Source of the DNA: a virus
Lineage: Duplodnaviria > Caudoviricetes
IMG/VR virus record: IMGVR_UViG_3300037518_000672
Coordinates: 1 to 54,656 of that record
Direction: 5' to 3' (one strand)
DNA length: 54,656 nucleotides
A model generated the notes under the pieces. That model made no database searches and was not told where the DNA came from. It saw nothing but the letters and a program-made list of their open reading frames with translations. The translations under genes and the position numbers were made by a program. Every line of letters starts with the position of its first letter. The first letter of the stretch is position 1. Below are positions 2,405-52,596 of the stretch, one piece after another.

Positions 2405-3899
2405 GCGCCGCCGCCGGCAACAGACCAAAACCTCCCTCGCCGAACTCTACCGGGCTGACCCGGAGGGCTACGCCCGGGACGTTTTAGGGGTCACCTGGTG
2501 GGCCAAACAAATCGAGGTAGCCCGGCTACTCCTGACCCCGCCCTACCGGGTGCTAGTCAAGGCGAGCCACAAGATCGGCAAAACCCACCTCGGCGGCGGC
2601 CTGGTCAACTGGTGGTACGACGTTCACGATCCGGGGCTAACCCTGACCACGGCCCCCAACGTCAGGCAGGTCAAGGATCTACTCTGGAAAGAAGTCCGGG
2701 TTCAGCGCGGCGGTCGCGGTGGCTTTCCCGGCCCGAAGGCGGCCCGGCTAGAAAGCAGCCCGGATCATTTCGCCCACGGCTTCACGGCCCGCGACGGCGA
2801 AAGTTTTCAGGGCAATCACGGCCCGCACGTTTTTATCATCTTCGACGAGGCCGTGGGGGTCGACTCGATATTTTGGGAAACGGCCGAGTCGATGTTCAGC
2901 GGTGAGGGCCACGCCTGGCTGGCTATTTTCAACCCGACCGACACCAGCTCCCAGGCCTATGCCGAGGAGTTGAGCGGCGGTTGGCACTCGGTGACGATCT
3001 CGGCCCTGGAGCATCCCAACATCATCGCCGAGCTGAAGGGCGAGCCGCCGCCGTTCCCGGCCGCCATGCGGCTGGCCAGGGTCGAGTATCTGCTCGGCAA
3101 ATGGTGCCGGCCGGTCGAGGGCAAGCCCAAGGCCACCGACATCGAGTGGCCACCGGGCAGCGGCCAGTATTTGCGACCGGGGCCAATTGCGGAGGCCCGG
3201 CTGCTGGGCCGGTGGCCCTCGCAGGCCACCTACAACGTCTGGAGCGATGCGGTCTGGAGCGAGGCCGAGCTACTGCTCCTGCCGGAGCCGAAAGACAAGC
3301 CGTGCGAGATCGGCTGCGACGTGGCGAGATTTGGCGACGACTTCACCACGATCCACGTTCGGCGCGGCCCGGTCTCGCTGCACCACGAGAGCGTCAATGG
3401 CCGGTCCACCAGCGGGACCGCCGGCCGGCTAAAACAGGTGGCCGACCAGTGGGGCCGGCACTGCGGCCTCGACGGCAAGCGGCTCCTGGTCAAAGTGGAC
3501 GATGACGGCGTTGGCGGCGGGGTGACCGACCAGCGGGGCGATTACAATTTTGTGCCCGTCTCCGGAGCCGGCACCGCGATGGAGCCGGAGGATTATCCCA
3601 ATCGCCGCAGCGAGCTCTGGTTCGCCGTGGCCGAACGGGCCGAGGAGGGCCGCTTGAGCCTGGTCCGGCTGCCAGCAGAGGTACGGCGCGAATTGCGCCG
3701 GCAGGCGATGGCCCCGGTCTGGAAAGTCGATAGCGAGGGCCGGCGGGTGGTCGAGCCAAAAGAGGCCACCAAGAAACGCCTCAAGCGCTCGCCAGACGAC
3801 CTGGACGCCCTAAACCTGGCCTACGCGCCGCCTGGCCACGCGGTTCAAATCCTGGAACATTACCGGCGCAGAGCCGAAGGAACAAAAACCGATGCCTGA
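2367..3899 (+). CDS. terL: Terminase large subunit
   Basis: Walker A-like ASHKIGKT, Walker B IIFDEA, FNP coupling motif, RNase H-like IGCDVARFGDD and SPDDLDAL. Confidence 0.93.
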   Translation: MSFYQQRAAAERERRRRQQTKTSLAELYRADPEGYARDVLGVTWWAKQIEVARLLLTPPYRVLVKASHKIGKTHLGGGLVNWWYDVHDPGLTLTTAPNVRQVKDLLWKEVRVQRGGRGGFPGPKAARLESSPDHFAHGFTARDGESFQGNHGPHVFIIFDEAVGVDSIFWETAESMFSGEGHAWLAIFNPTDTSSQAYAEELSGGWHSVTISALEHPNIIAELKGEPPPFPAAMRLARVEYLLGKWCRPVEGKPKATDIEWPPGSGQYLRPGPIAEARLLGRWPSQATYNVWSDAVWSEAELLLLPEPKDKPCEIGCDVARFGDDFTTIHVRRGPVSLHHESVNGRSTSGTAGRLKQVADQWGRHCGLDGKRLLVKVDDDGVGGGVTDQRGDYNFVPVSGAGTAMEPEDYPNRRSELWFAVAERAEEGRLSLVRLPAEVRRELRRQAMAPVWKVDSEGRRVVEPKEATKKRLKRSPDDLDALNLAYAPPGHAVQILEHYRRRAEGTKTDA

Positions 3900-5811
3900 C
3901 ATTCCCCGAGGTACCACCGTCATAGATCTCCGCGAGGGAGCCAAACGCATCAGCGGGGCCTGGAACGCCCTGCTGGGCCGCCGCTTTGGCCCAGGCCTGC
4001 CCCTCTCGCCCACCACCGGCCAGGAGGAGCAGACCCAGGGACCCCGCCAGTATCAATACCCGGTCGGGGTCAACACCAACTTCATCCCTCGCCGAGACGG
4101 GACCGCCGGCACGCTGACCCCCTTTGAGCAGCTGCGCAACCTGGCCGCGCTCTACGACGTGGCCGCCATGTGCATCGCCACCCGGATCGAGGAGATGCAG
4201 GGCCTGGAGTGGGCGGTGGTGCCTAAAGACAAAAAACGCCAGGAGGAGTTGCAAGACGAGTGTGACGCGGCCACCGATTTTATGCAGCAGCCGGACAAGC
4301 TCAACAAATTCGATGCCTGGCTGGGCATGCTCTTGTACGACCTGTTCAGCATCGACGCCCCGAGCATCTACAAGCGGCTCGACCGGGCCGGTCGGCTGCA
4401 CGCCCTGGAGATCATCGATGGCTCGACGATCAAACCGCTCCTTGATGAGCGGGGCCGGGCGGTGGCCTACCAGCAAATCCTGTACGGCTCACCGGCCAGC
4501 CAATACCGGCGCGAGGGCACCGACGCCCCGGATGAGGAGCTGCCGATCTACGCTCCCCACGAGCTGATCTATCGACCTCGCTGGACCCGCACCTTTACCC
4601 CCTACGGTTTCCCGCCGACCGAGTGGATCATCCTCCGGGTCAACACCGCCTTGCGCAAGCAGGCGTTTGACCTGGCCTATTTCACCGACGGCAACATCCC
4701 CGATATGATCGCCACCCCGCCGGGCGACGCCAAAAACGGCGGCAACCTCAGCCCGGAGCAGGTCGAGCAATTCGAGGAATGGTTTAACGCCATGCTCGAA
4801 GGCAACGACGCGGCCCGGCGCAAGGTCCGGTTTTTGCCCTGGAACATGAACATGAAGGAGTTGCGGCCGTTTAACTATGAGACGATCCTAGACGAGTGGA
4901 TGCTACGGGTCACCTGCGCCGCCTACAGCGTACCGCCCCAGGAACTCGGCTTCACCAACGACGTCAACAAAGGGACCGCCGAGTTGCAGGAGGCCGTCAA
5001 CCAGCGCAAGGGCTTGAAGCCCTTGGCCAATTGGCTCAAGAAAAACTTCTTTAACGATTTTATCCAGCAAGACCTGGCCGCGGCCTGGGGGCCGGGCCGA
5101 CCCGACCAGGCCCTCAGCCTGCCCGGCCAACCGACCCGACCCCCGACCAACCCCTTCAAGCTGGTCGAGTGGGGCTGGCAATTCGGCGATGACGACGACA
5201 AACAAACCCAGGCGGCCACCGACCAGATCTACCACGCCATCGGGGCCGTCTCGGCCAACGAGATCCGGGTGATGCGCTTTGGCGATATCCTCGACGGCGA
5301 CGGACCAGGCGCGCTGGGCATAACCACAACCACGCCGGCCCCGGAGGAGCCAACCCCTCATCAGGTTCGGGATGCAACCCCTGAGCCGGCAGACGCGCCA
5401 CCGGCCGAAGACGCGGTTCAGCCCGCGCCGCCGGTCGCCGCTCGGCCGCCAGAGGTCGACTCCCGGCTGGCTCTCAACGGCGCTCAGGTGCAGGCCGCCC
5501 TGGACATTATGACCCAGGTGCAGGCCGGCCAGTTGGGCTATGAGGCGGCCCGAAATGCCCTCCAGATTTTCTTCAATCTCAGCCCGGAGCAGGCCGAGCG
5601 ATTATTAGCGGCGGGGGCCGACGGCCTGACGGTGACCGAGAAGCTGGCCAAGGCCAGCACTGCCAACGGGCTGGGAGACGACGATCCACTGATCGCGGTC
5701 AAAGGCGAGCAGGCCGAGGCCCTGAAGGGGAAGCTGCTGGAGTATTTCGGCGGGTTGCAGCAGCGGATCGAGAGCGATCCGCCCCGCTCAGGGGGCGACA
5801 ATGCCACCTGA
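3892..5811 (+). CDS. Portal protein with C-terminal extension
   Basis: Follows terL; portal-like motifs (IDGSTIKP, YGFPPTE, YFTDGNIP, AAYSVPPQELG). Confidence 0.88.
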   Translation: MPDIPRGTTVIDLREGAKRISGAWNALLGRRFGPGLPLSPTTGQEEQTQGPRQYQYPVGVNTNFIPRRDGTAGTLTPFEQLRNLAALYDVAAMCIATRIEEMQGLEWAVVPKDKKRQEELQDECDAATDFMQQPDKLNKFDAWLGMLLYDLFSIDAPSIYKRLDRAGRLHALEIIDGSTIKPLLDERGRAVAYQQILYGSPASQYRREGTDAPDEELPIYAPHELIYRPRWTRTFTPYGFPPTEWIILRVNTALRKQAFDLAYFTDGNIPDMIATPPGDAKNGGNLSPEQVEQFEEWFNAMLEGNDAARRKVRFLPWNMNMKELRPFNYETILDEWMLRVTCAAYSVPPQELGFTNDVNKGTAELQEAVNQRKGLKPLANWLKKNFFNDFIQQDLAAAWGPGRPDQALSLPGQPTRPPTNPFKLVEWGWQFGDDDDKQTQAATDQIYHAIGAVSANEIRVMRFGDILDGDGPGALGITTTTPAPEEPTPHQVRDATPEPADAPPAEDAVQPAPPVAARPPEVDSRLALNGAQVQAALDIMTQVQAGQLGYEAARNALQIFFNLSPEQAERLLAAGADGLTVTEKLAKASTANGLGDDDPLIAVKGEQAEALKGKLLEYFGGLQQRIESDPPRSGGDNAT

Positions 5812-6935: not shown

Positions 6936-6953
6936 ATTAGCCAGGAGGAAAAA

Positions 6954-7136
6954 ATGATTAACGAGTTACTGGAAAGTAAAAAGTTTTGGATGATGGTGGT
7001 CGGGCTGGTGATTATCGCCACCAATCGCTACGGGTTGGAGCTGGACGCCGACCAACTCTTCGGCGTAGCCCTGACCATCGTGGGCTACTTGACCGGCCAG
7101 GGCCTGGCCGATTTCAGCAAAGAGAAGCAGCCGTAG
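6954..7136 (+). CDS. Small two-TM protein (holin-like)
   Basis: SKKFW-hydrophobic...GQGLADF; strong AGGAGG RBS. Confidence 0.6.
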   Translation: MINELLESKKFWMMVVGLVIIATNRYGLELDADQLFGVALTIVGYLTGQGLADFSKEKQP

Positions 7137-7148
7137 CGGAGGCTAAAT

Positions 7149-7697
7149 ATGCAATCATACGAACCAATGAACGTACTCCCGAATGAATTTCAGCGGGACT
7201 GGCAAGCGGAGTTGCGGCCGGCGGAGGACCACCCGGCCGGGGTGTTTCGGCTGGTGGCGATCAGACGAACGGAGGGCGGAGGCTTCGAGGGGCAGCGGGT
7301 GACGGTGCTGCTGCTCGATGAGGATGGGCAGGCGCTGCCGAGCGTGCCGGTAGCCTTCAGCTATTCCACGGCCCGGCAGTATATTGTGGGGCCAGAGTTC
7401 ACCTGGCGGCCACCCACGCCCCGCCGGGCCGATGTGTTTGCAACCCAGGGCGGGGGACAGATCGACCACGTCCAAGGCAGCGTGGTCAAGGCCGGTCAAC
7501 CAGGTGGGATCACGGCGTATGTGTTATCGCCGCTGTACGCCAGCGATGTGGTTAGCGGGCTGGGCATGCTGGCCGACCACTCTGGCGTTCACCTGACCTT
7601 CCAGTTGCGGCGGGTGGGGGTGGTGCCGCTGGGGGAGCGCCTGGCCAGCATCGAGGCGCGGCTGGCGGCGCTGGAAGCGGGGGGCAACCCCGCGTAG
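7149..7697 (+). CDS. Hypothetical protein (beta-rich, C-terminal coiled coil)
   Basis: GGAGG RBS; follows the holin-like gene. Confidence 0.65.
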   Translation: MQSYEPMNVLPNEFQRDWQAELRPAEDHPAGVFRLVAIRRTEGGGFEGQRVTVLLLDEDGQALPSVPVAFSYSTARQYIVGPEFTWRPPTPRRADVFATQGGGQIDHVQGSVVKAGQPGGITAYVLSPLYASDVVSGLGMLADHSGVHLTFQLRRVGVVPLGERLASIEARLAALEAGGNPA

Positions 7698-7700
7698 ATT

Positions 7701-7892
7701 TTACCTTCGCCTTGGGTCCCTCGGCGCTCTTCCTTCGTTGCGGGATTTGTAGTCTTCCAGGCTGGCCGGGTCAATCATCCAGGCCGGGCCAAACTTCTCC
7801 GCCTTGATTGAGCCGCGCTTGATCAGGCGAATGATCGTGAATGAGTTAACGCCTAAAAAATCTGCGGCCTGCTGCCTTGTCATTGGTTTCAA
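7701..7892 (-). CDS. Excisionase-like HTH (HTH_17/MerR-like) DNA-binding protein
   Basis: MTRQQAADFLGVNSFTIIRLIKRGSIKAEKFG.W.I; GGAGG 7 nt before TTG 7892 (alternative ATG 7883). Confidence 0.8.
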   Translation of the reverse strand: MKPMTRQQAADFLGVNSFTIIRLIKRGSIKAEKFGPAWMIDPASLEDYKSRNEGRAPRDPRRR

Positions 7893-7904
7893 GATTACCC
7901 CTCC

Positions 7905-8072
7905 CTCCTGACCCACGCGCTCCCCTAACCCACGAGCGCGTGGGGTGAACGACTGCCCCGGCTTTTTAATTTTGAGGAAACCCCCCTGACCCACGCGCTT
8001 GTGGGGCGAACGCCAGGAGGAAAGAAATGGTAAACGAACTATTCCCCTGACCCACGCGCTTGTGGGGCGAAC
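7905..8072 (-). CRISPR. Mini CRISPR-like array: three 29-nt repeats, two 32-nt spacers and a truncated terminal repeat
   Basis: Identical repeats GTTCGCCCCACAAGCGCGTGGGTCAGGGG (- strand) at 8044-8072 and 7983-8011; degenerate copy at 7922-7950; 17-nt remnant at 7905-7921; spacers at 8012-8043 and 7951-7982. Confidence 0.88.
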
Positions 8073-8176
8073 CCCAAACCACGAAGTTCACATTTTCCTG
8101 CTTCATCGCCCCGCTAATGCTAAAGGCTCCACAGGCGTTTAGTTACTCTCCGCCCAGGTAGTACGGCGAGTTTTAT
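8073..8176 (-). ncRNA. TnpB omega-RNA (reRNA) scaffold, possibly acting as tracrRNA
   Basis: Directly 3' of the tnpB stop; contains GCCTGTGGAG (8136-8127) and GATGAAGCAGGAA (8107-8095), typical of tnpB-downstream RNAs; boundaries approximate. Confidence 0.7.
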
Positions 8177-9337
8177 TCATCCTTCCCCTAAAATCCTCAG
8201 CGCTTCATCCCGAATGTTGAGCGCCGCGTTGCCGTCTCTATGGTTGATTGTTCCGCAGCCTTCGCAGGGCCATTCGCGGTCGGATAGCTTCAAGTCGGCT
8301 TTAATCCAACCGCAAACGTTGCACGCTTTTGAAGAACAAAACCACTGGCCAACCGGAACAACTATGCCGCCATTCCAGGCCGCCTTGTACTCCAATTGTC
8401 TACGCTTCTCAAACATCGCCGCATCACTCACCGCTTTTGCCAGGTGGCGATTTTTCACCATCCCTTTAACATTCAAGGTTTCAACCCCGATAATCCCGTA
8501 ATCTCTGGCGATTTGGGTGGTCATTTGGTGACTGGCCTCATCGCGGATACAAGCTATTTTATAATGCAGCTTGGCTATTTTTTCCTTCATCTTGAGCCAG
8601 TTCTTTCCACCCTTCTCCATTCGGGCAAAAGAACGTTGTAGCCGTCTTAGCTTGCGCTTCATCTGCTCAGTAGCTTTTGGGTTCTCAAAAATTTGGCCGT
8701 CGCTGGTCACGGCGAGATACTTAACCCCAAGATCAACCCCTACCGCTTCGTCATTGTGGCCCGGTACCTCCTGCTTGACCTCGACCTGCACCGATAGCCA
8801 CCAATGCCCGGCCCGGTAGACGATACGCCCGCCCATCACCTTGCCGTCAAAGCGGAGCGGTTCGGCCATATTGACCCAACCAACGCGGGCCTTGTCAAAC
8901 CAAAATTGGCTATCACTGAAATGCATAATCGCATTGTGTATATAAAATGCCGGGGTTGATTTGTGGCGGCTCTTGAAACGAGGCCAGCCGAACGGCTTGC
9001 CGTCTTTTCGAGGCTTCCAACCGGCAGGCGGCTTTAGCAATCCCTTTTTGTGCTTGTTAAAGAAATTCCTAAATGATTTTTCCAGATCATCAAAAGCCCC
9101 CACCATTGCCCACGACGTAACCTCAGATGCCCAAGGGAATTGCTCCGCTTTGATCGCGTTAAACTCTTCTCTAAGCAGTCGCCCGCTTACCTTTTCTTTT
9201 GCCTCTAACCGGCGGTTATATTCGGCCAAGCCCCAGTTGAAGCAAAATCTAGCGACGCCAGCTGCCCGCCAAAAATAGGCGGCTTGTTCCGGCGTTGGGT
9301 TCAGCCTTATCTTATGAGCTTTAATCACTGTATCCAT
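8177..9337 (-). CDS. tnpB: RNA-guided nuclease TnpB (Cas12f-like), 386 aa, catalytically intact
   Basis: HKIRLNPTPEQ N-terminus; RuvC D (VGVDLG), E (GVETL), D (HRDGNAALNI); CxxC...CxxC Zn finger; ATG 9337 lies 7 nt after a -10 box. Confidence 0.93.
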   Translation of the reverse strand: MDTVIKAHKIRLNPTPEQAAYFWRAAGVARFCFNWGLAEYNRRLEAKEKVSGRLLREEFNAIKAEQFPWASEVTSWAMVGAFDDLEKSFRNFFNKHKKGLLKPPAGWKPRKDGKPFGWPRFKSRHKSTPAFYIHNAIMHFSDSQFWFDKARVGWVNMAEPLRFDGKVMGGRIVYRAGHWWLSVQVEVKQEVPGHNDEAVGVDLGVKYLAVTSDGQIFENPKATEQMKRKLRRLQRSFARMEKGGKNWLKMKEKIAKLHYKIACIRDEASHQMTTQIARDYGIIGVETLNVKGMVKNRHLAKAVSDAAMFEKRRQLEYKAAWNGGIVVPVGQWFCSSKACNVCGWIKADLKLSDREWPCEGCGTINHRDGNAALNIRDEALRILGEG

Positions 9338-9344
9338 AAATCGA

Positions 9345-9373
9345 ATTGTACTACAAAAAATAAGACTTGCCAA
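9345..9373 (-). promoter_or_regulatory. Sigma70-like promoter for a leaderless tnpB transcript
   Basis: TTGGCA-17 nt-TACAAT; ATG 7 nt downstream and no RBS. Confidence 0.7.
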
Positions 9374-9420
9374 ATACCCTTGACAAGCCGCGCGAGACGG
9401 CCCGGCAGCAGGTCTCAATT

Positions 9421-9465
9421 TTGCCTAAATTGACAATTGAGCGGCCACCGAAAAAATGATAGGAT
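9421..9465 (+). promoter_or_regulatory. Head-operon promoter with a conserved upstream motif
   Basis: TTGCCTAAATTGACAATTGA is identical to 53021-53040; TTGAGC-17-TAGGAT. Confidence 0.6.
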
Positions 9466-9505
9466 AGGATCGCGGGCCATGCGATCCTCGGCCCAACAGT
9501 TTTTA

Positions 9506-9557
9506 GCCCGACAGAGCGCGAGCCGGGGCAGTCTTTTTGAGACCGCCCCGGCTTTTT
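9506..9557 (+). terminator. Leader terminator with conserved upstream motif (putative antitermination switch 1)
   Basis: GCCCGACAGAG..CCGGGGCAGTC; hairpin 9521-9553 followed by a T-run. Confidence 0.6.
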
Positions 9558-9574
9558 GATTTTGAGGAAAACCG

Positions 9575-11209
9575 ATGCCAGACCAACTGACCCCAGGTGC
9601 GACCGCCTGGATTGGCTTTTTTCTACCACCCGAGGTGGCCCAGCCGTTGGCCCTGGCCGGCGGCGAGCCGGCCAGCGAGCTACATCTGACTCTGGCCTTC
9701 TTGGGAGATGCCGACAAATTAGATCTGGACCGGCTGAAGGAGGGCCTGGCCCTGTGGGGCAAGAACCAAATCCCCATCAGTGGTCGGATCAGCGGGGTGG
9801 GCCGTTTCAACGAAACCGGCGAGGAGGGCCAGCACGCCTTTTATGCCTCGGTCGATGCGCCCGGCCTGGCCCGTTTCCGACAAAATCTGGTCAACGAGCT
9901 AGACTGGCTCGACTGCCCGGCCGACCGAACTCACGGCTACACCCCCCACATTACCCTGCAATACCTCCCGGCCGGCGATCCCTCGCCGCTAACCAGCCTG
10001 GAGCGGATTTTCGAGGTCGAGCTCGACACAATGACCCTGGTCATCAGCGAGCCACCTGTCGCCGACAGCGACCGGCGCGAGCTGCGCCGGATCGAGTACC
10101 AACTGACCGGCGGCCCGGTCGAGAAAACGCAGGCGGCCGGCTTCGGCGTGAGCGCTCAGTCGAACGGCCAGTGGACCCGCTTTGCCAAGATCGACAGCCT
10201 CGACGCCGAAGAGCGAATGATCTACGGCGTCGCCGCGACCGAGGAACCCGACGATCAGGCGGGGGTCTGGGAAGGCCGGAAATACGAGGGCGATATCGTG
10301 ACCATCGAGGCCATCGAGGAGGCCCTGCCCGACTATCTGAAATGGGCCAACATCCGGGAGATGCACCAGCCCTCGGCTGTGGGCACGACCCTGGAGACCG
10401 AGATCAAGGACCGTAAGCTCCACATCGGGGTCAGGATCGTGGACGGGCCGGCCTGGGAAAAAGTGAAAGAAAAGGTCTACCGCGGCTTCTCGGTCGGCGG
10501 CCAGGTCCTCAAGGCCAAACTAGTGGAGATCGGCGGCAAAATCTACCGCAAGATCTTAAAACTCAAACTCTATGAAATTTCATTGGTGGATCGGCCCGCG
10601 AATGGCGGCTCCGAAATTTTACTATTCAAGCTCTCTACGGAGGAAACGATGGCAACAGACAACAAAGACAAAAAGCCCGCGGCGGCCAACTCGGACGGCG
10701 GGGCCGGCGACAAAGCGGCCCAGGCCCTCACCATGCTCCAGGAACTGCGCGACGAATGCGAGCGCAGCGGGGATATGGCCGGGGCCGGCAAGTACGGCCG
10801 GGCCATTGCCTTGATGATCGGCGAGGCCGAGGGGTCGATAGCGGCCGGCGAAGGCGTGGAAGACGACGAAGTGCAACTGAGCCAAAAGAGCGGCGACCTG
10901 CAAAAGGCCATCAAGCCCGCTTTGGACGGCCTGGCTAAGGCCATTCAAGACGGCCTGGCCGAGCAATTCAAGACGCTCGATGAGCGGCTGGCCAATATCG
11001 AGGCCCAACCGGCCGCCGGCGGCCCCAGCCTGCGCCAGGCCGAGAAGCCTGCGCCGGGCCAGCAAAAACCGGCCCGCCAGGATCCCGCCTTCACCAAAGG
11101 GCAACTGGGCGACCTCAAGCAAAAGGCATCGACGGAGCCGAACCCGGCCCTGCGGGCTCAGTACCAGCAGCAGTACATCCACATTCTGGAATCAGCGGTC
11201 GCCGCCTAA
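9575..11209 (+). CDS. 2H phosphoesterase domain fused to prohead protease and scaffold region
   Basis: HLTL and HITL motifs in the first ~160 aa; IREMH, YRGFSVGG, EISLVDRPAN protease motifs; acidic helical C-terminus; precedes the capsid gene. Confidence 0.85.
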   Translation: MPDQLTPGATAWIGFFLPPEVAQPLALAGGEPASELHLTLAFLGDADKLDLDRLKEGLALWGKNQIPISGRISGVGRFNETGEEGQHAFYASVDAPGLARFRQNLVNELDWLDCPADRTHGYTPHITLQYLPAGDPSPLTSLERIFEVELDTMTLVISEPPVADSDRRELRRIEYQLTGGPVEKTQAAGFGVSAQSNGQWTRFAKIDSLDAEERMIYGVAATEEPDDQAGVWEGRKYEGDIVTIEAIEEALPDYLKWANIREMHQPSAVGTTLETEIKDRKLHIGVRIVDGPAWEKVKEKVYRGFSVGGQVLKAKLVEIGGKIYRKILKLKLYEISLVDRPANGGSEILLFKLSTEETMATDNKDKKPAAANSDGGAGDKAAQALTMLQELRDECERSGDMAGAGKYGRAIALMIGEAEGSIAAGEGVEDDEVQLSQKSGDLQKAIKPALDGLAKAIQDGLAEQFKTLDERLANIEAQPAAGGPSLRQAEKPAPGQQKPARQDPAFTKGQLGDLKQKASTEPNPALRAQYQQQYIHILESAVAA

Positions 11210-49810: not shown

Positions 49811-49839
49811 TTGACATATACGCACCATTGATGTATAGT
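49811..49839 (+). promoter_or_regulatory. Promoter for a leaderless RHH-tnpB transcript
   Basis: TTGACA-17-TATAGT; ATG 6 nt downstream. Confidence 0.75.
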
Positions 49840-49845
49840 ATCTGT

Positions 49846-49983
49846 ATGGTCAGAATAAATATCTACATCCTCAAAGAGCAATACGAACAACTGAAAAAAT
49901 TAGCTACGAGTCGAATCAAGGTGTCCGAACATATTCGCCGGGCCATCGATGACTACCTGGAGAAATGTAAACCAAGTGAGTAA
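49846..49983 (+). CDS. CopG/RHH DNA-binding protein, 45 aa (below ORF-track cutoff)
   Basis: MVRINIYILKEQYEQLKKLA...VSEHIRRAIDDYL. Confidence 0.8.
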   Translation: MVRINIYILKEQYEQLKKLATSRIKVSEHIRRAIDDYLEKCKPSE

Positions 49984-51376
49984 AGTCACCCGAATTGCCT
50001 ATGGTGCAAATCTGAACCAGGGCAAGCACGACCAGTTAGCTGAGATAGCCGACCGTCTCGGCTTGCTCCGGTCTGAGGTATGGCAGCGATATGGGTCTAT
50101 CGCCGGGGTAGGTTTGACTGATCGCAAAATTCGGGATCAATGGTTAGCCGAAGGCAGGCGTTTTGATATTCCGGCCAGGCTATGGAAAGAAACCCTGCGG
50201 GTCACCATTGCAGACATTACCGCCTATCGAGAGGCGGCTAAGGTTGAGGTGAGGCAGGCTATCAGGCGACATACCAGCGACGAACAGGAACAAAAGCGAC
50301 TGTATACCTTACTCAAGTACGACCGATGGACAGAAGATAGTTACTTGCGCCGCCAGATGCGGGAACATTTCAAGCACGGACAAACCCAGGTGGACAATCA
50401 AATCGTGCTTGATTCCGACTGCTATACCACCTTTGAGTTGAACGGAAAGACTTGGCTCAAGGTGATGGGCCCGGTATCTGGTCAAAGAATAACTATCCCC
50501 CTAAATACCAATATCGAAATATCGGGTTCGATTCGGTTGATCCTGAGAGATGGACGAATCGAAGTTCACTATGCGGTCGAAGAAAGTTCCGTTTGCGTCA
50601 CCCGGCCTTGTGGGGACAAGACGCTTGGGATTGACAAGGGGTATACCGAAGTCTATGTCGATTCGGATGGGGACCGGCATGGCGAGGGGTTGGGAAAAAC
50701 CCTATCTACGGAATCAGATTATCTCAAGGTCAAATATCAGCGACGTAACAAGCTCAAGGCGATTGCTGATAAGAAGCCTCGTAAACGAGACAAGATACTC
50801 AAGAACAATCTTGGCCGAAAGAAGCTGGATCAACGCAAGAAACAACACCGGCAGAAAGTTCGGGACAAGATATACAAGGCCACCCATTCCGTAGTAGACA
50901 AAGCCAGACAGGTTGTATGTGAAGACCTGCCCGGCCTGATTGTCGGCAAGTCGTTTGGTAAAAATCAGAATCGACGGCTATCCGGTTGGGTCAAAGGGAT
51001 AATGGCCGAGTCTTTAGAAGCGGTAACCCGGCGCAGAGGTTCTGCGCCTTTAGCATTGGTCAACGCGGCCTACAGTTCGCAAACAGATTCGAGATACGGC
51101 GTCTTGCTTGGAGAGCGTCGTGGGGATCGGTTTTACTGTTTTGACGGGGTGCTGTTGGACGCTGACCACAATGCTGCTTTGAATTTGCTGGCAAGATTAG
51201 ATGATCCTGAGATTGGACGGTTTACGCCGTACAAACAGGTGAAGTCTATTTTGCTGGCACGAACAAAGCAATTCACGGTTGATACTGGATCAACCCAGGC
51301 TCTAGTTGCAGCGGCCCAAGATGCACCGTCGCTATCAACAGAGTGCGAATTACCTTTTTTGATTAACTTTGGCTAA
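49976..51376 (+). CDS. tnpB: TnpB-family RNA-guided nuclease (second, divergent copy)
   Basis: RuvC D (GIDKG), E (VCEDL), D (DADHNAALN); Zn finger degenerate; start GTG 49976 or ATG 49949. Confidence 0.85.
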   Translation: MSKVTRIAYGANLNQGKHDQLAEIADRLGLLRSEVWQRYGSIAGVGLTDRKIRDQWLAEGRRFDIPARLWKETLRVTIADITAYREAAKVEVRQAIRRHTSDEQEQKRLYTLLKYDRWTEDSYLRRQMREHFKHGQTQVDNQIVLDSDCYTTFELNGKTWLKVMGPVSGQRITIPLNTNIEISGSIRLILRDGRIEVHYAVEESSVCVTRPCGDKTLGIDKGYTEVYVDSDGDRHGEGLGKTLSTESDYLKVKYQRRNKLKAIADKKPRKRDKILKNNLGRKKLDQRKKQHRQKVRDKIYKATHSVVDKARQVVCEDLPGLIVGKSFGKNQNRRLSGWVKGIMAESLEAVTRRRGSAPLALVNAAYSSQTDSRYGVLLGERRGDRFYCFDGVLLDADHNAALNLLARLDDPEIGRFTPYKQVKSILLARTKQFTVDTGSTQALVAAAQDAPSLSTECELPFLINFG

Positions 51377-51503: not shown

Positions 51504-52520
51504 TTATAGGTCTTTTAGATCCGGCCCATAGCGGCCGTGGGCCTCTTGCAGCTCGGCGGTGTTAAAGCGGGCGTAGATTTTGGTCACATCCGTGGTGCTG
51601 TGGCCCATCAAGTCGGAGAGCTGCACGGTGGGGATGCCCTTGAGGGTGGTGTCTCGCCCGAACGCATGCCGCCAGGCATGCGGGCTGAAGGCGTCTTCGT
51701 CCAGGCCGGCCCGCTCGGCTACTCGTCTGAAGACGAGATAAATGCCGTTATAGGTCAGCGGCCCCTGGTGGCCCTGAAAGACGGCGTCGCCGGGGCCGGC
51801 CCGTTTCAGGCTGGCCCGGTAGGCGGTCAGGGCCTGGGCCGTGGGCGCCCGAAAAAAAGCGGGTCGGTGTTTGCCCCCTTTGCCCACGAGGTGAGCCTTG
51901 TTTTCCTCAAGGAAAACATTTCCCCAGGTCAACCCCTCGGCCTCGATGGCCCGACAGCCGGTGTCGCGGAAAAATAGCAGCAGCGCCCGCTCGCGGTCAT
52001 CCTCGACGGCCTCGATCATCTGCTCGATGTGAGCCCGGGTAATCGCCTTGGGCGGTGCATCCTGGGGCAATTTGGGCGGGTGGATGCTGGTCATCGGATC
52101 TGAGCCCAGATAATTCTGCTCGAACAGCCAGCGGCCAAAGCGGGTCAAAATGTGATAGTGCCCCTTGAGGGTGTAGGGCGACCAGCCGCGCCCCTTCAGG
52201 CTGGCCCAGTAGGCCAGCCAGGTCTCGCCGGCTTCGAGGCCGGCGCCGGTTCGGACCAGCCACTCCCCGAATTGCCCCAGCCGATTACGGTAGCCCTTGA
52301 GCGTGACCGGCCGCAAATCCTCGTTGATATCCAGGTAGATCAAAAACTGAGCGATCAGGCCCGGCACATCCAGAGCCGGGCCGCCGGGATCGGGGCCGAG
52401 CGTGTATTCCAACTGCTGGCCGTTGGGCAGCGCCAGGATGATCGAGCGGCACCCCGGCGGCAGGCTGGACAGGTCGATCTTGAGATGGTGGCCATTGAAG
52501 ACAAAATTCACGTTGAACAT
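51504..52520 (-). CDS. Tyrosine integrase (core-binding + catalytic domains)
   Basis: DTGCR, GKGGK, HAWRH, MGH, IY. Confidence 0.9.
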   Translation of the reverse strand: MFNVNFVFNGHHLKIDLSSLPPGCRSIILALPNGQQLEYTLGPDPGGPALDVPGLIAQFLIYLDINEDLRPVTLKGYRNRLGQFGEWLVRTGAGLEAGETWLAYWASLKGRGWSPYTLKGHYHILTRFGRWLFEQNYLGSDPMTSIHPPKLPQDAPPKAITRAHIEQMIEAVEDDRERALLLFFRDTGCRAIEAEGLTWGNVFLEENKAHLVGKGGKHRPAFFRAPTAQALTAYRASLKRAGPGDAVFQGHQGPLTYNGIYLVFRRVAERAGLDEDAFSPHAWRHAFGRDTTLKGIPTVQLSDLMGHSTTDVTKIYARFNTAELQEAHGRYGPDLKDL

Positions 52521-52596
52521 GCGTTCCCCTTTTCTTGGTGGTTGATTTAGAAAAATGCCTCGACCGGGTATAATCACTAGAGCAAGGGGTGATTTG

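Follow-up and report, generated by a model that had tools for sequence, protein, structure and literature searches.

A phage-borne TnpB gene beside a scaffold-led, type I-E-style mini-array: a candidate TnpB–CRISPR hybrid of the TranC kind

Introduction

Intermediates between transposons and CRISPR (clustered regularly interspaced short palindromic repeats) systems, termed TranC, were reportedly described by Jin et al. (Cell, 2025). The present study concerns a cassette of ~1.8 kb (~7700-9540, minus strand) in a tailed phage, in which a gene for the nuclease TnpB is followed by an omegaRNA-type scaffold and a short CRISPR-like array; the phage sequence, IMG/VR virus record IMGVR_UViG_3300037518_000672, was analysed over its whole length of 54,656 bp and is referred to as the window. 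TranC nucleases are of TnpB size and use CRISPR arrays, and the native array of a phage-encoded member, CauTranC9, targets phage sequences (bioRxiv 10.64898/2026.03.27.714800; like the other sources cited here, drawn on in excerpt); TranC is also treated in 10.1101/2025.09.28.678669. Systems of this kind, phage CauTranC9 included, are thus already published, and the idea of a TnpB-to-Cas12 intermediate, put forward in a preliminary description of the locus from its sequence, had been anticipated as TranC down to the phage-encoded case.

The cassette resembles CauTranC9 and TranC in that a RuvC nuclease no larger than TnpB adjoins a short array of the same orientation and further cas genes are absent; common to them are also, as far as the excerpted sources go, a scaffold RNA of apparent omegaRNA descent, a tailed-phage genome and an array thought to target phages. 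The repeats of TranC measure 38 bp in clade 9 and 32-36 bp in clades 3 and 11 (bioRxiv 10.64898/2026.03.27.714800, in the part cited), against 29 nt, of type I-E-like form, in the window. Unlike in TranC, a full omegaRNA scaffold and a linker stand ahead of every array and no anti-repeat was found; moreover, the window TnpB matches ISDra2 TnpB over its full length (structure 8H1J, E 1.3e-56), whereas its similarity to LaTranC is confined to the RuvC region at the C terminus (E 7e-27). What is distinctive here is the type I-E-style arrays, the scaffold-led arrays without a TnpB of their own and the spacers drawn from the cassette flanks.

The candidate type V variants V-U6 to V-U45 (V-U*; Altae-Tran et al. 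2023, PMC10691335) likewise pair TnpB-like proteins with downstream arrays and, as described in the excerpted text, have no Cas1, Cas2 or Cas4; insertion of tnpB near a pre-existing array is given there as one possible origin. That survey, which comprises 40 such branches, excluded, according to the same text, loci with arrays linked to other CRISPR types. Viral mini-arrays, as far as they are covered in the part of PMC11656645 used here, resemble the present arrays in having one to few spacers, no cas genes and spacers related to the carrier's kin, and a single repeat unit occurs in our locus L164; the published ones have repeats identical to those of a host CRISPR, whereas no host array was found here, and, unlike them, every TnpB-linked array in our set sits behind an omegaRNA scaffold. 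ISDra2 TnpB (PDB 8H1J; PMC10097598, in excerpt) offers the same domain order, catalytic residues and zinc finger, and its scaffold lies 3' of the gene, as the candidate scaffold does in the window. Unlike ISDra2, the window has no TnpA, no recognisable transposon ends and a single genomic copy, and it has an array where the guide from flanking DNA would continue.

The observation is real and non-random. Because the layout is present in two copies in the closest relative, L181, and was met again in three other lineages of phages, the sequence comparison argues for a functional link between omegaRNA scaffold and array. With a probability of roughly one half, we read the cassette as a phage-borne TnpB–CRISPR hybrid similar to TranC that would act against related phages and whose TnpB may load the spacers.

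The cassette: array, nuclease and scaffold

The order given in the preliminary description for the minus strand (promoter, 386-aa TnpB, scaffold, repeats and spacers, degenerate repeat, remnant and helix-turn-helix (HTH) gene) was confirmed from the sequence, with 104 nt of scaffold and linker separating the tnpB stop codon from repeat 1 (Table 1). Repeats 1 and 2 are identical 29-mers, giving 2 matches versus 0 in 100 shuffles; degenerate repeat 3 agrees with them at 24 of 29 positions and is followed by a partial repeat, and both spacers are 32 nt long. Array geometry in our set is type I-E-like, with a 29-nt repeat, 32-33-nt spacers and a hairpin of 5-6 bp closed by a tetraloop; the arrays of the phages L003 and L004 similarly have 29-nt repeats and 31-34-nt spacers.

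Table 1. Positions of the cassette features and of the spacer look-alikes in the window (ORF, open reading frame; R, repeat; S, spacer; SL1, stem-loop 1)
Feature	Position	Strand	Basis or detail
Sigma-70-like promoter (-35 TTGGCA from 9373, 17 nt, -10 TACAAT to 9345)	9345..9373	-	10/12 consensus matches
TnpB, 386 aa, ISDra2-like	8177..9337	-	Pfam; PDB 8H1J; alignment
OmegaRNA-type scaffold: SL1 8170..8146 (loop GUACUACCUG) and RAGATH-18-like element 8135..8095	8095..8176	-	Rfam sub-threshold, L181 homology
Linker, 22 nt, scaffold end to repeat 1	8073..8094	-	Unique in window
Mini-array	7903..8072	-	R1 8072..8044, S1 8043..8012, R2 8011..7983, S2 7982..7951, R3 7950..7922, remnant ~7921..7903
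HTH_17 (excisionase/MerR-like) ORF, 60 aa, directly 3' of array	7701..7883	-	Pfam
Phage's own copy of spacer 2, 29/32 identical	9541..9572		Edit distance 3 versus at least 8 in 150 shuffles
Phage's own look-alike of spacer 1, 26/32 with one gap	6940..6970		Edit distance 6 versus at least 8 in 150 shuffles

The TnpB is intact, as had been claimed. Three Pfam families (HTH_OrfB_IS605, OrfB_IS605 and Cas12f1-like_TNB) are found above their cut-offs, and the RuvC residues D202, E286 and D368 and the zinc-finger residues C339, C342, C358 and C361 are intact and invariant in 5/5 aligned TnpBs, namely four array-linked ones, the window included, and the array-less L083. The protein thus carries the HTH/WED-REC, RuvC and zinc-ribbon domains and the catalytic D/E/D of the IS200/IS605 family, and features expected of a mobile element (a TnpA gene or additional copies, and recognisable termini on the left and right) were not found for it; it is an ordinary-looking TnpB, not an enlarged Cas12, and presumably active. 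A promoter-like site was likewise seen: with the tnpB ATG at 9337, 7 nt past the -10 box, a leaderless or near-leaderless transcript is plausible. All 81 greedily called ORFs of the window were scanned and contained 0 Cas families and 0 TnpA, Y1 or serine transposases, in agreement with the preliminary description; two genes overlooked there encode a tyrosine integrase and another TnpB-like protein.

The 3' part of the scaffold scores below threshold with the Rfam model RAGATH-18 (29.8 bits versus a gathering score of 44.9, E 0.007), and the whole is homologous to both L181 scaffold copies (nhmmer E 1e-15 to 1e-18). Among the three scaffolds, compensatory change was seen in 5/18 predicted pairs, and the SL1 loop, GTACTACCTGGG, is identical throughout; the two scaffold copies of L166 likewise differ in a compensatory manner (GGCTG/CAGCC versus CCGTG/CACGG, and in P1 CCTGG/CCAGG versus CCTAG/CTAGG). 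The compensatory changes, together with the identical SL1 loop, indicate that the array-leading scaffolds are maintained as RNA. A profile of the window-type scaffold matches the window (one copy) and the two L181 copies and neither L163 nor L164, and the RAGATH-18-like motifs of L007, L166, L004 and L083 were recognised by eye only, cmscan listing none at E up to 5. Folding of the whole region was uninformative (z = -0.51).

Between scaffold and repeat 1, the 22-nt linker would occupy the place where an ordinary omegaRNA has its guide, and may be regarded as a putative 'guide-0'; linkers of 20-34 nt are also present in L166, L004 and L181. In multicopy relatives from Psychrobacter and Faucicola, the conserved right end extends 45-62 nt beyond the RAGATH-18 element and stops sharply before variable flank, so that the scaffold 3' end varies by lineage in this TnpB group; in the window, 22 nt lie between the RAGATH-18 element and repeat 1.

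Recurrence of scaffold-led arrays

TnpB loci were collected by protein and by alignment searches, which gave sets of 80 viral, 80 genome, 78 viral and again 80 viral loci, the last seeded with the L181 TnpB, and arrays were located with a simple repeat finder and then by reading the sequences. Six units, from four or five phage lineages, were found in which a scaffold is followed, after 20-85 nt, by a co-oriented array: that of the window, the downstream and upstream units of L181, that of the L003/L004/L015 group and the upstream units of L007 and of L165/L166, so that I-E-like arrays are tied to a TnpB scaffold in four phage groups besides the window. Co-occurrence of homologs with arrays, which had been set beforehand as a check on the idea, was accordingly observed twice in L181 and in three further phage lineages.

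L181, whose TnpB is the closest relative (55% identity), carries downstream of the gene the TnpB scaffold, 34 nt and 3 repeats; its second unit, encoded on the opposite strand, has 6 repeats that start 28 nt after an orphan scaffold, itself preceded by a -10-like box. In one of these two units the linker shares 12 nt, AAACCGAATATG, with a spacer of 20 nt belonging to the other unit. In L003, L004, L005, L006 and L015, which form one phage group, TnpB and its scaffold are followed by 3-5 repeats of a different 29-nt sequence, and the near-identical phages L003 (2 spacers) and L004 (4 spacers) have none in common. L007 shows an orphan scaffold, 43 nt, 3 repeats and, 19 nt further, the ATG of a TnpB that is followed by its own scaffold. 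The same order holds in L165/L166, from metagenomes, where a -10-like box, an orphan scaffold, 20 nt and 4 repeats almost identical to those of the window precede the TnpB ATG by 8 nt, and TnpB again has its own scaffold. Three of the six units (the upstream ones of L181, L007 and L166) are thus led by orphan scaffolds without a TnpB ORF, and ahead of those in L181 and L166 there is a promoter-like -10. The L181-seeded viral scan gave no further close relative, the next best showing 39% identity, and among the 80 bacterial and archaeal loci no CRISPR-like array was seen beside TnpB, the flagged repeats, which were not inspected further, being simple tandem ones or far from the gene.

Other repeated sequences were noted beside viral TnpBs. 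L226 (1297-1410) and L253 (691-862) have arrays of 35-40-nt repeats with a period of 73-76 just upstream of the gene, and may represent a further clade of TranC-like systems. Segments of 60-86 nt, duplicated in tandem with a period of 62-75, lie just downstream of TnpBs in L467 (2968-3442), L428/L429 (3468-3546) and L453/L454 (3239-3301), and may be arrays of omegaRNA segments. The IMG/VR record of L003 and L005, G001, of 143 kb, contains arrays at ~63.7 kb and ~137.5 kb and appears to be a head-to-tail fusion of two versions of one ~74-kb phage genome, of which one has the 2-spacer and the other the 4-spacer array. The small gene just before the L181 TnpB appears, by eye only, to be ribbon-helix-helix-like.

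Spacers and their look-alike sites

Both spacers resemble sites in the phage's own genome (Table 1) and would, judged by this similarity, derive from sites homologous to it. The copy of spacer 2 coincides with the 3' arm of a plus-strand terminator, its T-run and the ribosome-binding site of a LigT/prohead-protease gene, at the right edge of the cassette, and one of its three mismatches falls at position 2, beside where a 5' protospacer-adjacent motif (PAM) or transposon-associated motif (TAM) would be. The look-alike of spacer 1 coincides with the start of a 60-aa ORF, covering its ribosome-binding site and initial codons. As minus-strand RNA, both spacers would be complementary to the translation-start regions, ribosome-binding sites included, of genes on the plus strand (at 6954 the small ORF and at 9575 the protease gene, or a relative's homologues); chance, a bias toward conserved sites and regulation are possible readings of this placement.

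The 23-nt cores of spacers 1 and 2 had 0 matches in IMG/VR, and the spacers of L003, L004, L181 and L007 found no protospacer in six fetched phage records or the window. Contigs from four DNA runs labelled sediment metagenome (X1-X4) were aligned to the window. Array pieces from X1 and X3 have the same array sequence as the window, and no variant array was seen; the listed pieces from X2 and X4 stop short of the array, and no contig links the two sides of the cassette. Contigs from run X1 are ~90% identical to the phage at 6756-6923 and 7080-7214, which indicates that a relative co-occurs with the phage, although neither contig covers the protospacer site. No RNA run was listed among the sequencing runs with phage sequence.

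Which effector reads the array

According to the hybrid reading that we favour, a single transcript from the tnpB promoter would comprise tnpB, scaffold, linker and array. TnpB would use the scaffold in cis for the linker guide and may use it in trans, in the manner of a trans-activating CRISPR RNA, with the repeat-spacer units; it would then cut the DNA of close phage relatives having exact protospacers, while the phage's own copies would escape via mismatches, among them that at position 2 of spacer 2, the TAM/PAM-adjacent end. The 29/32-nt geometry would reflect an array captured from, or still extended by, a type I-E adaptation machine, and the cassette would serve to exclude related phages from co-infected cells, possibly with homing of the cassette. 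We count in favour of this reading the recurrence of the layout, the orphan scaffolds, the intact nuclease, the absence of host arrays among the sequences searched and the precedent of TranC, phage CauTranC9 included. The 12 nt common to linker and spacer in L181, the differing ends of near-identical repeats and the agreement of both window spacers with the phage's own genome, closer than in any of 150 shuffles, are counted on the same side. As in type V and TranC systems, the effector adjoins a co-oriented array, and the association is kept in relatives (window, L181 and three further lineages).

Two hints of mimicry between scaffold and repeat 3' ends were noticed. In the window, the scaffold ends in GAAG-CAGG-AA before the linker and the repeat in GGGT-CAGG-GG before the spacer; in L004, the repeat terminates in GATTCG, which could pair with CGAATC in the SL1 loop, and a further ATTCG occurs 24 nt before repeat 1. 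Both recall the ISDra2 pseudoknot, in which the bases immediately preceding the guide pair with the scaffold's 5' portion (PMC10097598, excerpted part).

A number of observations weigh against loading by TnpB. L003, the sibling of L004, has no ATTCG before its linker, and no general anti-repeat emerged when the last 10 nt of each repeat were paired with the scaffolds in a 7 x 7 matrix, the mean duplex energy being -9.4 kcal/mol for cognate and -9.1 kcal/mol for non-cognate pairs. A repeat end modelled on the 3' strand of the RAGATH-18 stem was considered and rejected, since in L181 the stem has changed to CCGTC/GACGG, yet the repeat keeps CAGGGG. With repeats of 29 nt, spacers of 32-33 nt and their hairpin, the arrays have type I-E dimensions, and TnpB requires a guide of only ~16 nt (PMC10097598, as excerpted). 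No true protospacer was found in the searches above, so no TAM can be read. L163 carries five repeats and lacks a TnpB over the 2 kb upstream and the ~0.3 kb downstream of them; L164 has a single repeat unit of the window family between terminase-like and portal-like genes. Finally, TnpBs with arrays are dispersed over a tree of 191 sequences, next to relatives that have none. The proposal that TnpB serves as a multi-guide system therefore stands only in part: the link between scaffold and array recurs, and against it are the type I-E-like repeats, the lack of a consistent anti-repeat and the arrays without TnpB.

The tree, which excluded proteins outside 330-520 aa, those with X, those running off the locus and exact duplicates, groups the window and L181 TnpBs with a support of 0.999. 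Pairwise identities among the array-bearing TnpBs are 33-55%, and their scatter would fit repeated, independent coupling to arrays.

The alternative that survives best is a host-dependent viral mini-array. The phage would copy the type I-E repeat of its host, whose Cas6e and Cascade-Cas3 would process the array and use it to destroy related phages; TnpB would merely lie next to the array, providing a promoter or travelling with it, and would not read the spacers. We consider this doubtful, though much of what was just listed speaks for it: the typical type I-E repeat, spacers and hairpin, the same-family arrays and single repeat unit in phage contigs without a nearby TnpB, the missing anti-repeat and the polyphyly of the array-linked TnpBs. 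The resemblance of both spacers to the phage's own genome also agrees with what is described, in the excerpt, for viral mini-arrays that target relatives (PMC11656645).

The search for a host array speaks against the host mini-array. Exact and degenerate repeat patterns gave 0 loci in bacterial genome contigs (three specific scans) and none in viral contigs; the genome scans, made with exact patterns and a single genome for each species, do not prove that a host array is absent. The loose pattern CCCCACN6GTGGNNCAGGGG gave at least 120 loci in genome contigs, and 80/80 of those listed were single matches in ordinary sequence. In 401 Chloroflexota genomes, sampled around the metagenome-assembled genome with the best cellular TnpB match and including G354, G048 and G237 (flagged unpublished), there were at most 3 repeat-pattern matches each, similar to controls. 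A metagenome scan with the conserved 23-nt repeat core returned only 4 loci (L163-L166), all of them phage-like and all with at most 5 repeats. The repeat was thus seen neither beside type I-E cas genes nor in a curated repeat family, no Rfam CRISPR-DR family being found at E up to 1.

The repeats themselves also argue against use by Cascade. Their last 6 nt differ among otherwise near-identical sequences (CAGGGG in the window, GACTGG in L166, AAGGGG in L163 and AGATTG in L164), so that the most variable part of the repeat lies at what we take to be the position of the otherwise conserved Cascade 5' handle. A scaffold in place of the leader would be without the leader features used in type I-E integration, which likewise counts against a host-read array. 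Nor does the host mini-array account for the position of six arrays, each beginning 20-85 nt behind an omegaRNA scaffold of the same orientation, or explain why orphan scaffolds ahead of arrays are conserved as RNA structure. In the TnpB-less array of L163, spacers 3 and 4 (2151-2244) are partly reverse-complementary, as if both strands of one target had each given rise to a spacer.

It is conceivable, but improbable, that the cassette is an inter-type hybrid that acts as an RNA-guided homing drive: an array with type I-E geometry, extendable by host Cas1-Cas2, would be read by TnpB via the scaffold, and its spacers would be aimed at cassette-flanking sites in relatives that have no cassette. 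A co-infecting relative would be cut and then repaired from the cassette-bearing genome. The site of spacer 2 abuts the cassette edge at 9541, and that of spacer 1 lies ~730 nt past the other edge.

Less probable again is mere co-mobility, in which homing stimulated by TnpB drags the array along or TnpB lands beside arrays, and the array either works separately from TnpB or is a decoy or relic (an RNA anti-CRISPR of the single-repeat type): the absence of common spacers in L003 and L004 indicates that the arrays are not inert relics, the 8 and 19 nt between last repeat and TnpB ORF in L166 and L007 leave no room for a transposon left end, and the window has no TnpA. What favours co-mobility is the composition of the cassette, a GC island with a G+C content of 47-57% against 64-69% in both flanks and, at third codon positions (GC3), 0.56 in tnpB against ~0.8 in neighbour genes, as well as the degenerate third repeat and remnant, the single repeat unit of L164 and a pair of direct repeats around the cassette. 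The latter, of 33 nt and 91% identical, lie at 7951-7983 (spacer 2) and 9541-9573 (terminator and ribosome-binding site of the protease gene) and bracket 1.59 kb that hold tnpB, the scaffold and the first two array repeats; they could be a scar of cassette entry or simply reflect a spacer acquired from a relative.

Were the favoured TnpB–CRISPR hybrid to prove correct and TnpB to read the arrays, an unexpanded ISDra2-like TnpB of 386 aa would have been coupled to a pre-existing type I-E-style array instead of growing its own. This would exemplify the route to type V by insertion near a pre-existing array, which Altae-Tran et al. (PMC10691335, in the part cited) do not rule out, and would amount to a nuclease that borrows the adaptation machinery of another system and to a multi-guide nuclease of very small size; in the arrays led by orphan scaffolds, the split of the RNA that has been proposed for TranC would be seen in nature. 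If, on the other hand, host Cascade reads the arrays, their repeated pairing with omegaRNA scaffolds would still need explaining.

Genome setting

The preliminary description had taken the genome to be complete. The IMG/VR class of the record, direct terminal repeats, agrees with this, whereas the CheckV completeness estimate is 64%. No match to positions 7000-10500 was found in the GenBank phage collection. The cassette lies inside a plus-strand head module, in which a portal gene (3892-5811) precedes it and the LigT/prohead-protease fusion (9575-11209) and then large structural ORFs follow. In the fusion, 3' of the cassette on the plus strand, a LigT/2'-5' RNA ligase-like phosphoesterase domain is joined to a prohead protease (S78) domain.

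The HTH_17 ORF that follows the array has its ribosome-binding site within the array trailer, and its product is 38% identical over 47 aa to that of the HTH gene beside the L163 array. The second TnpB-like ORF (49949-51376, 475 aa, GC3 0.53) is very divergent; only the Pfam TNB domain was recognised in it (E 2.7e-6), with no PDB match and no useful similarity to the 386-aa TnpB. It is flanked by a ribbon-helix-helix gene before it (49828-49983) and, on the opposite strand, by the tyrosine integrase gene after it (51504-52577).

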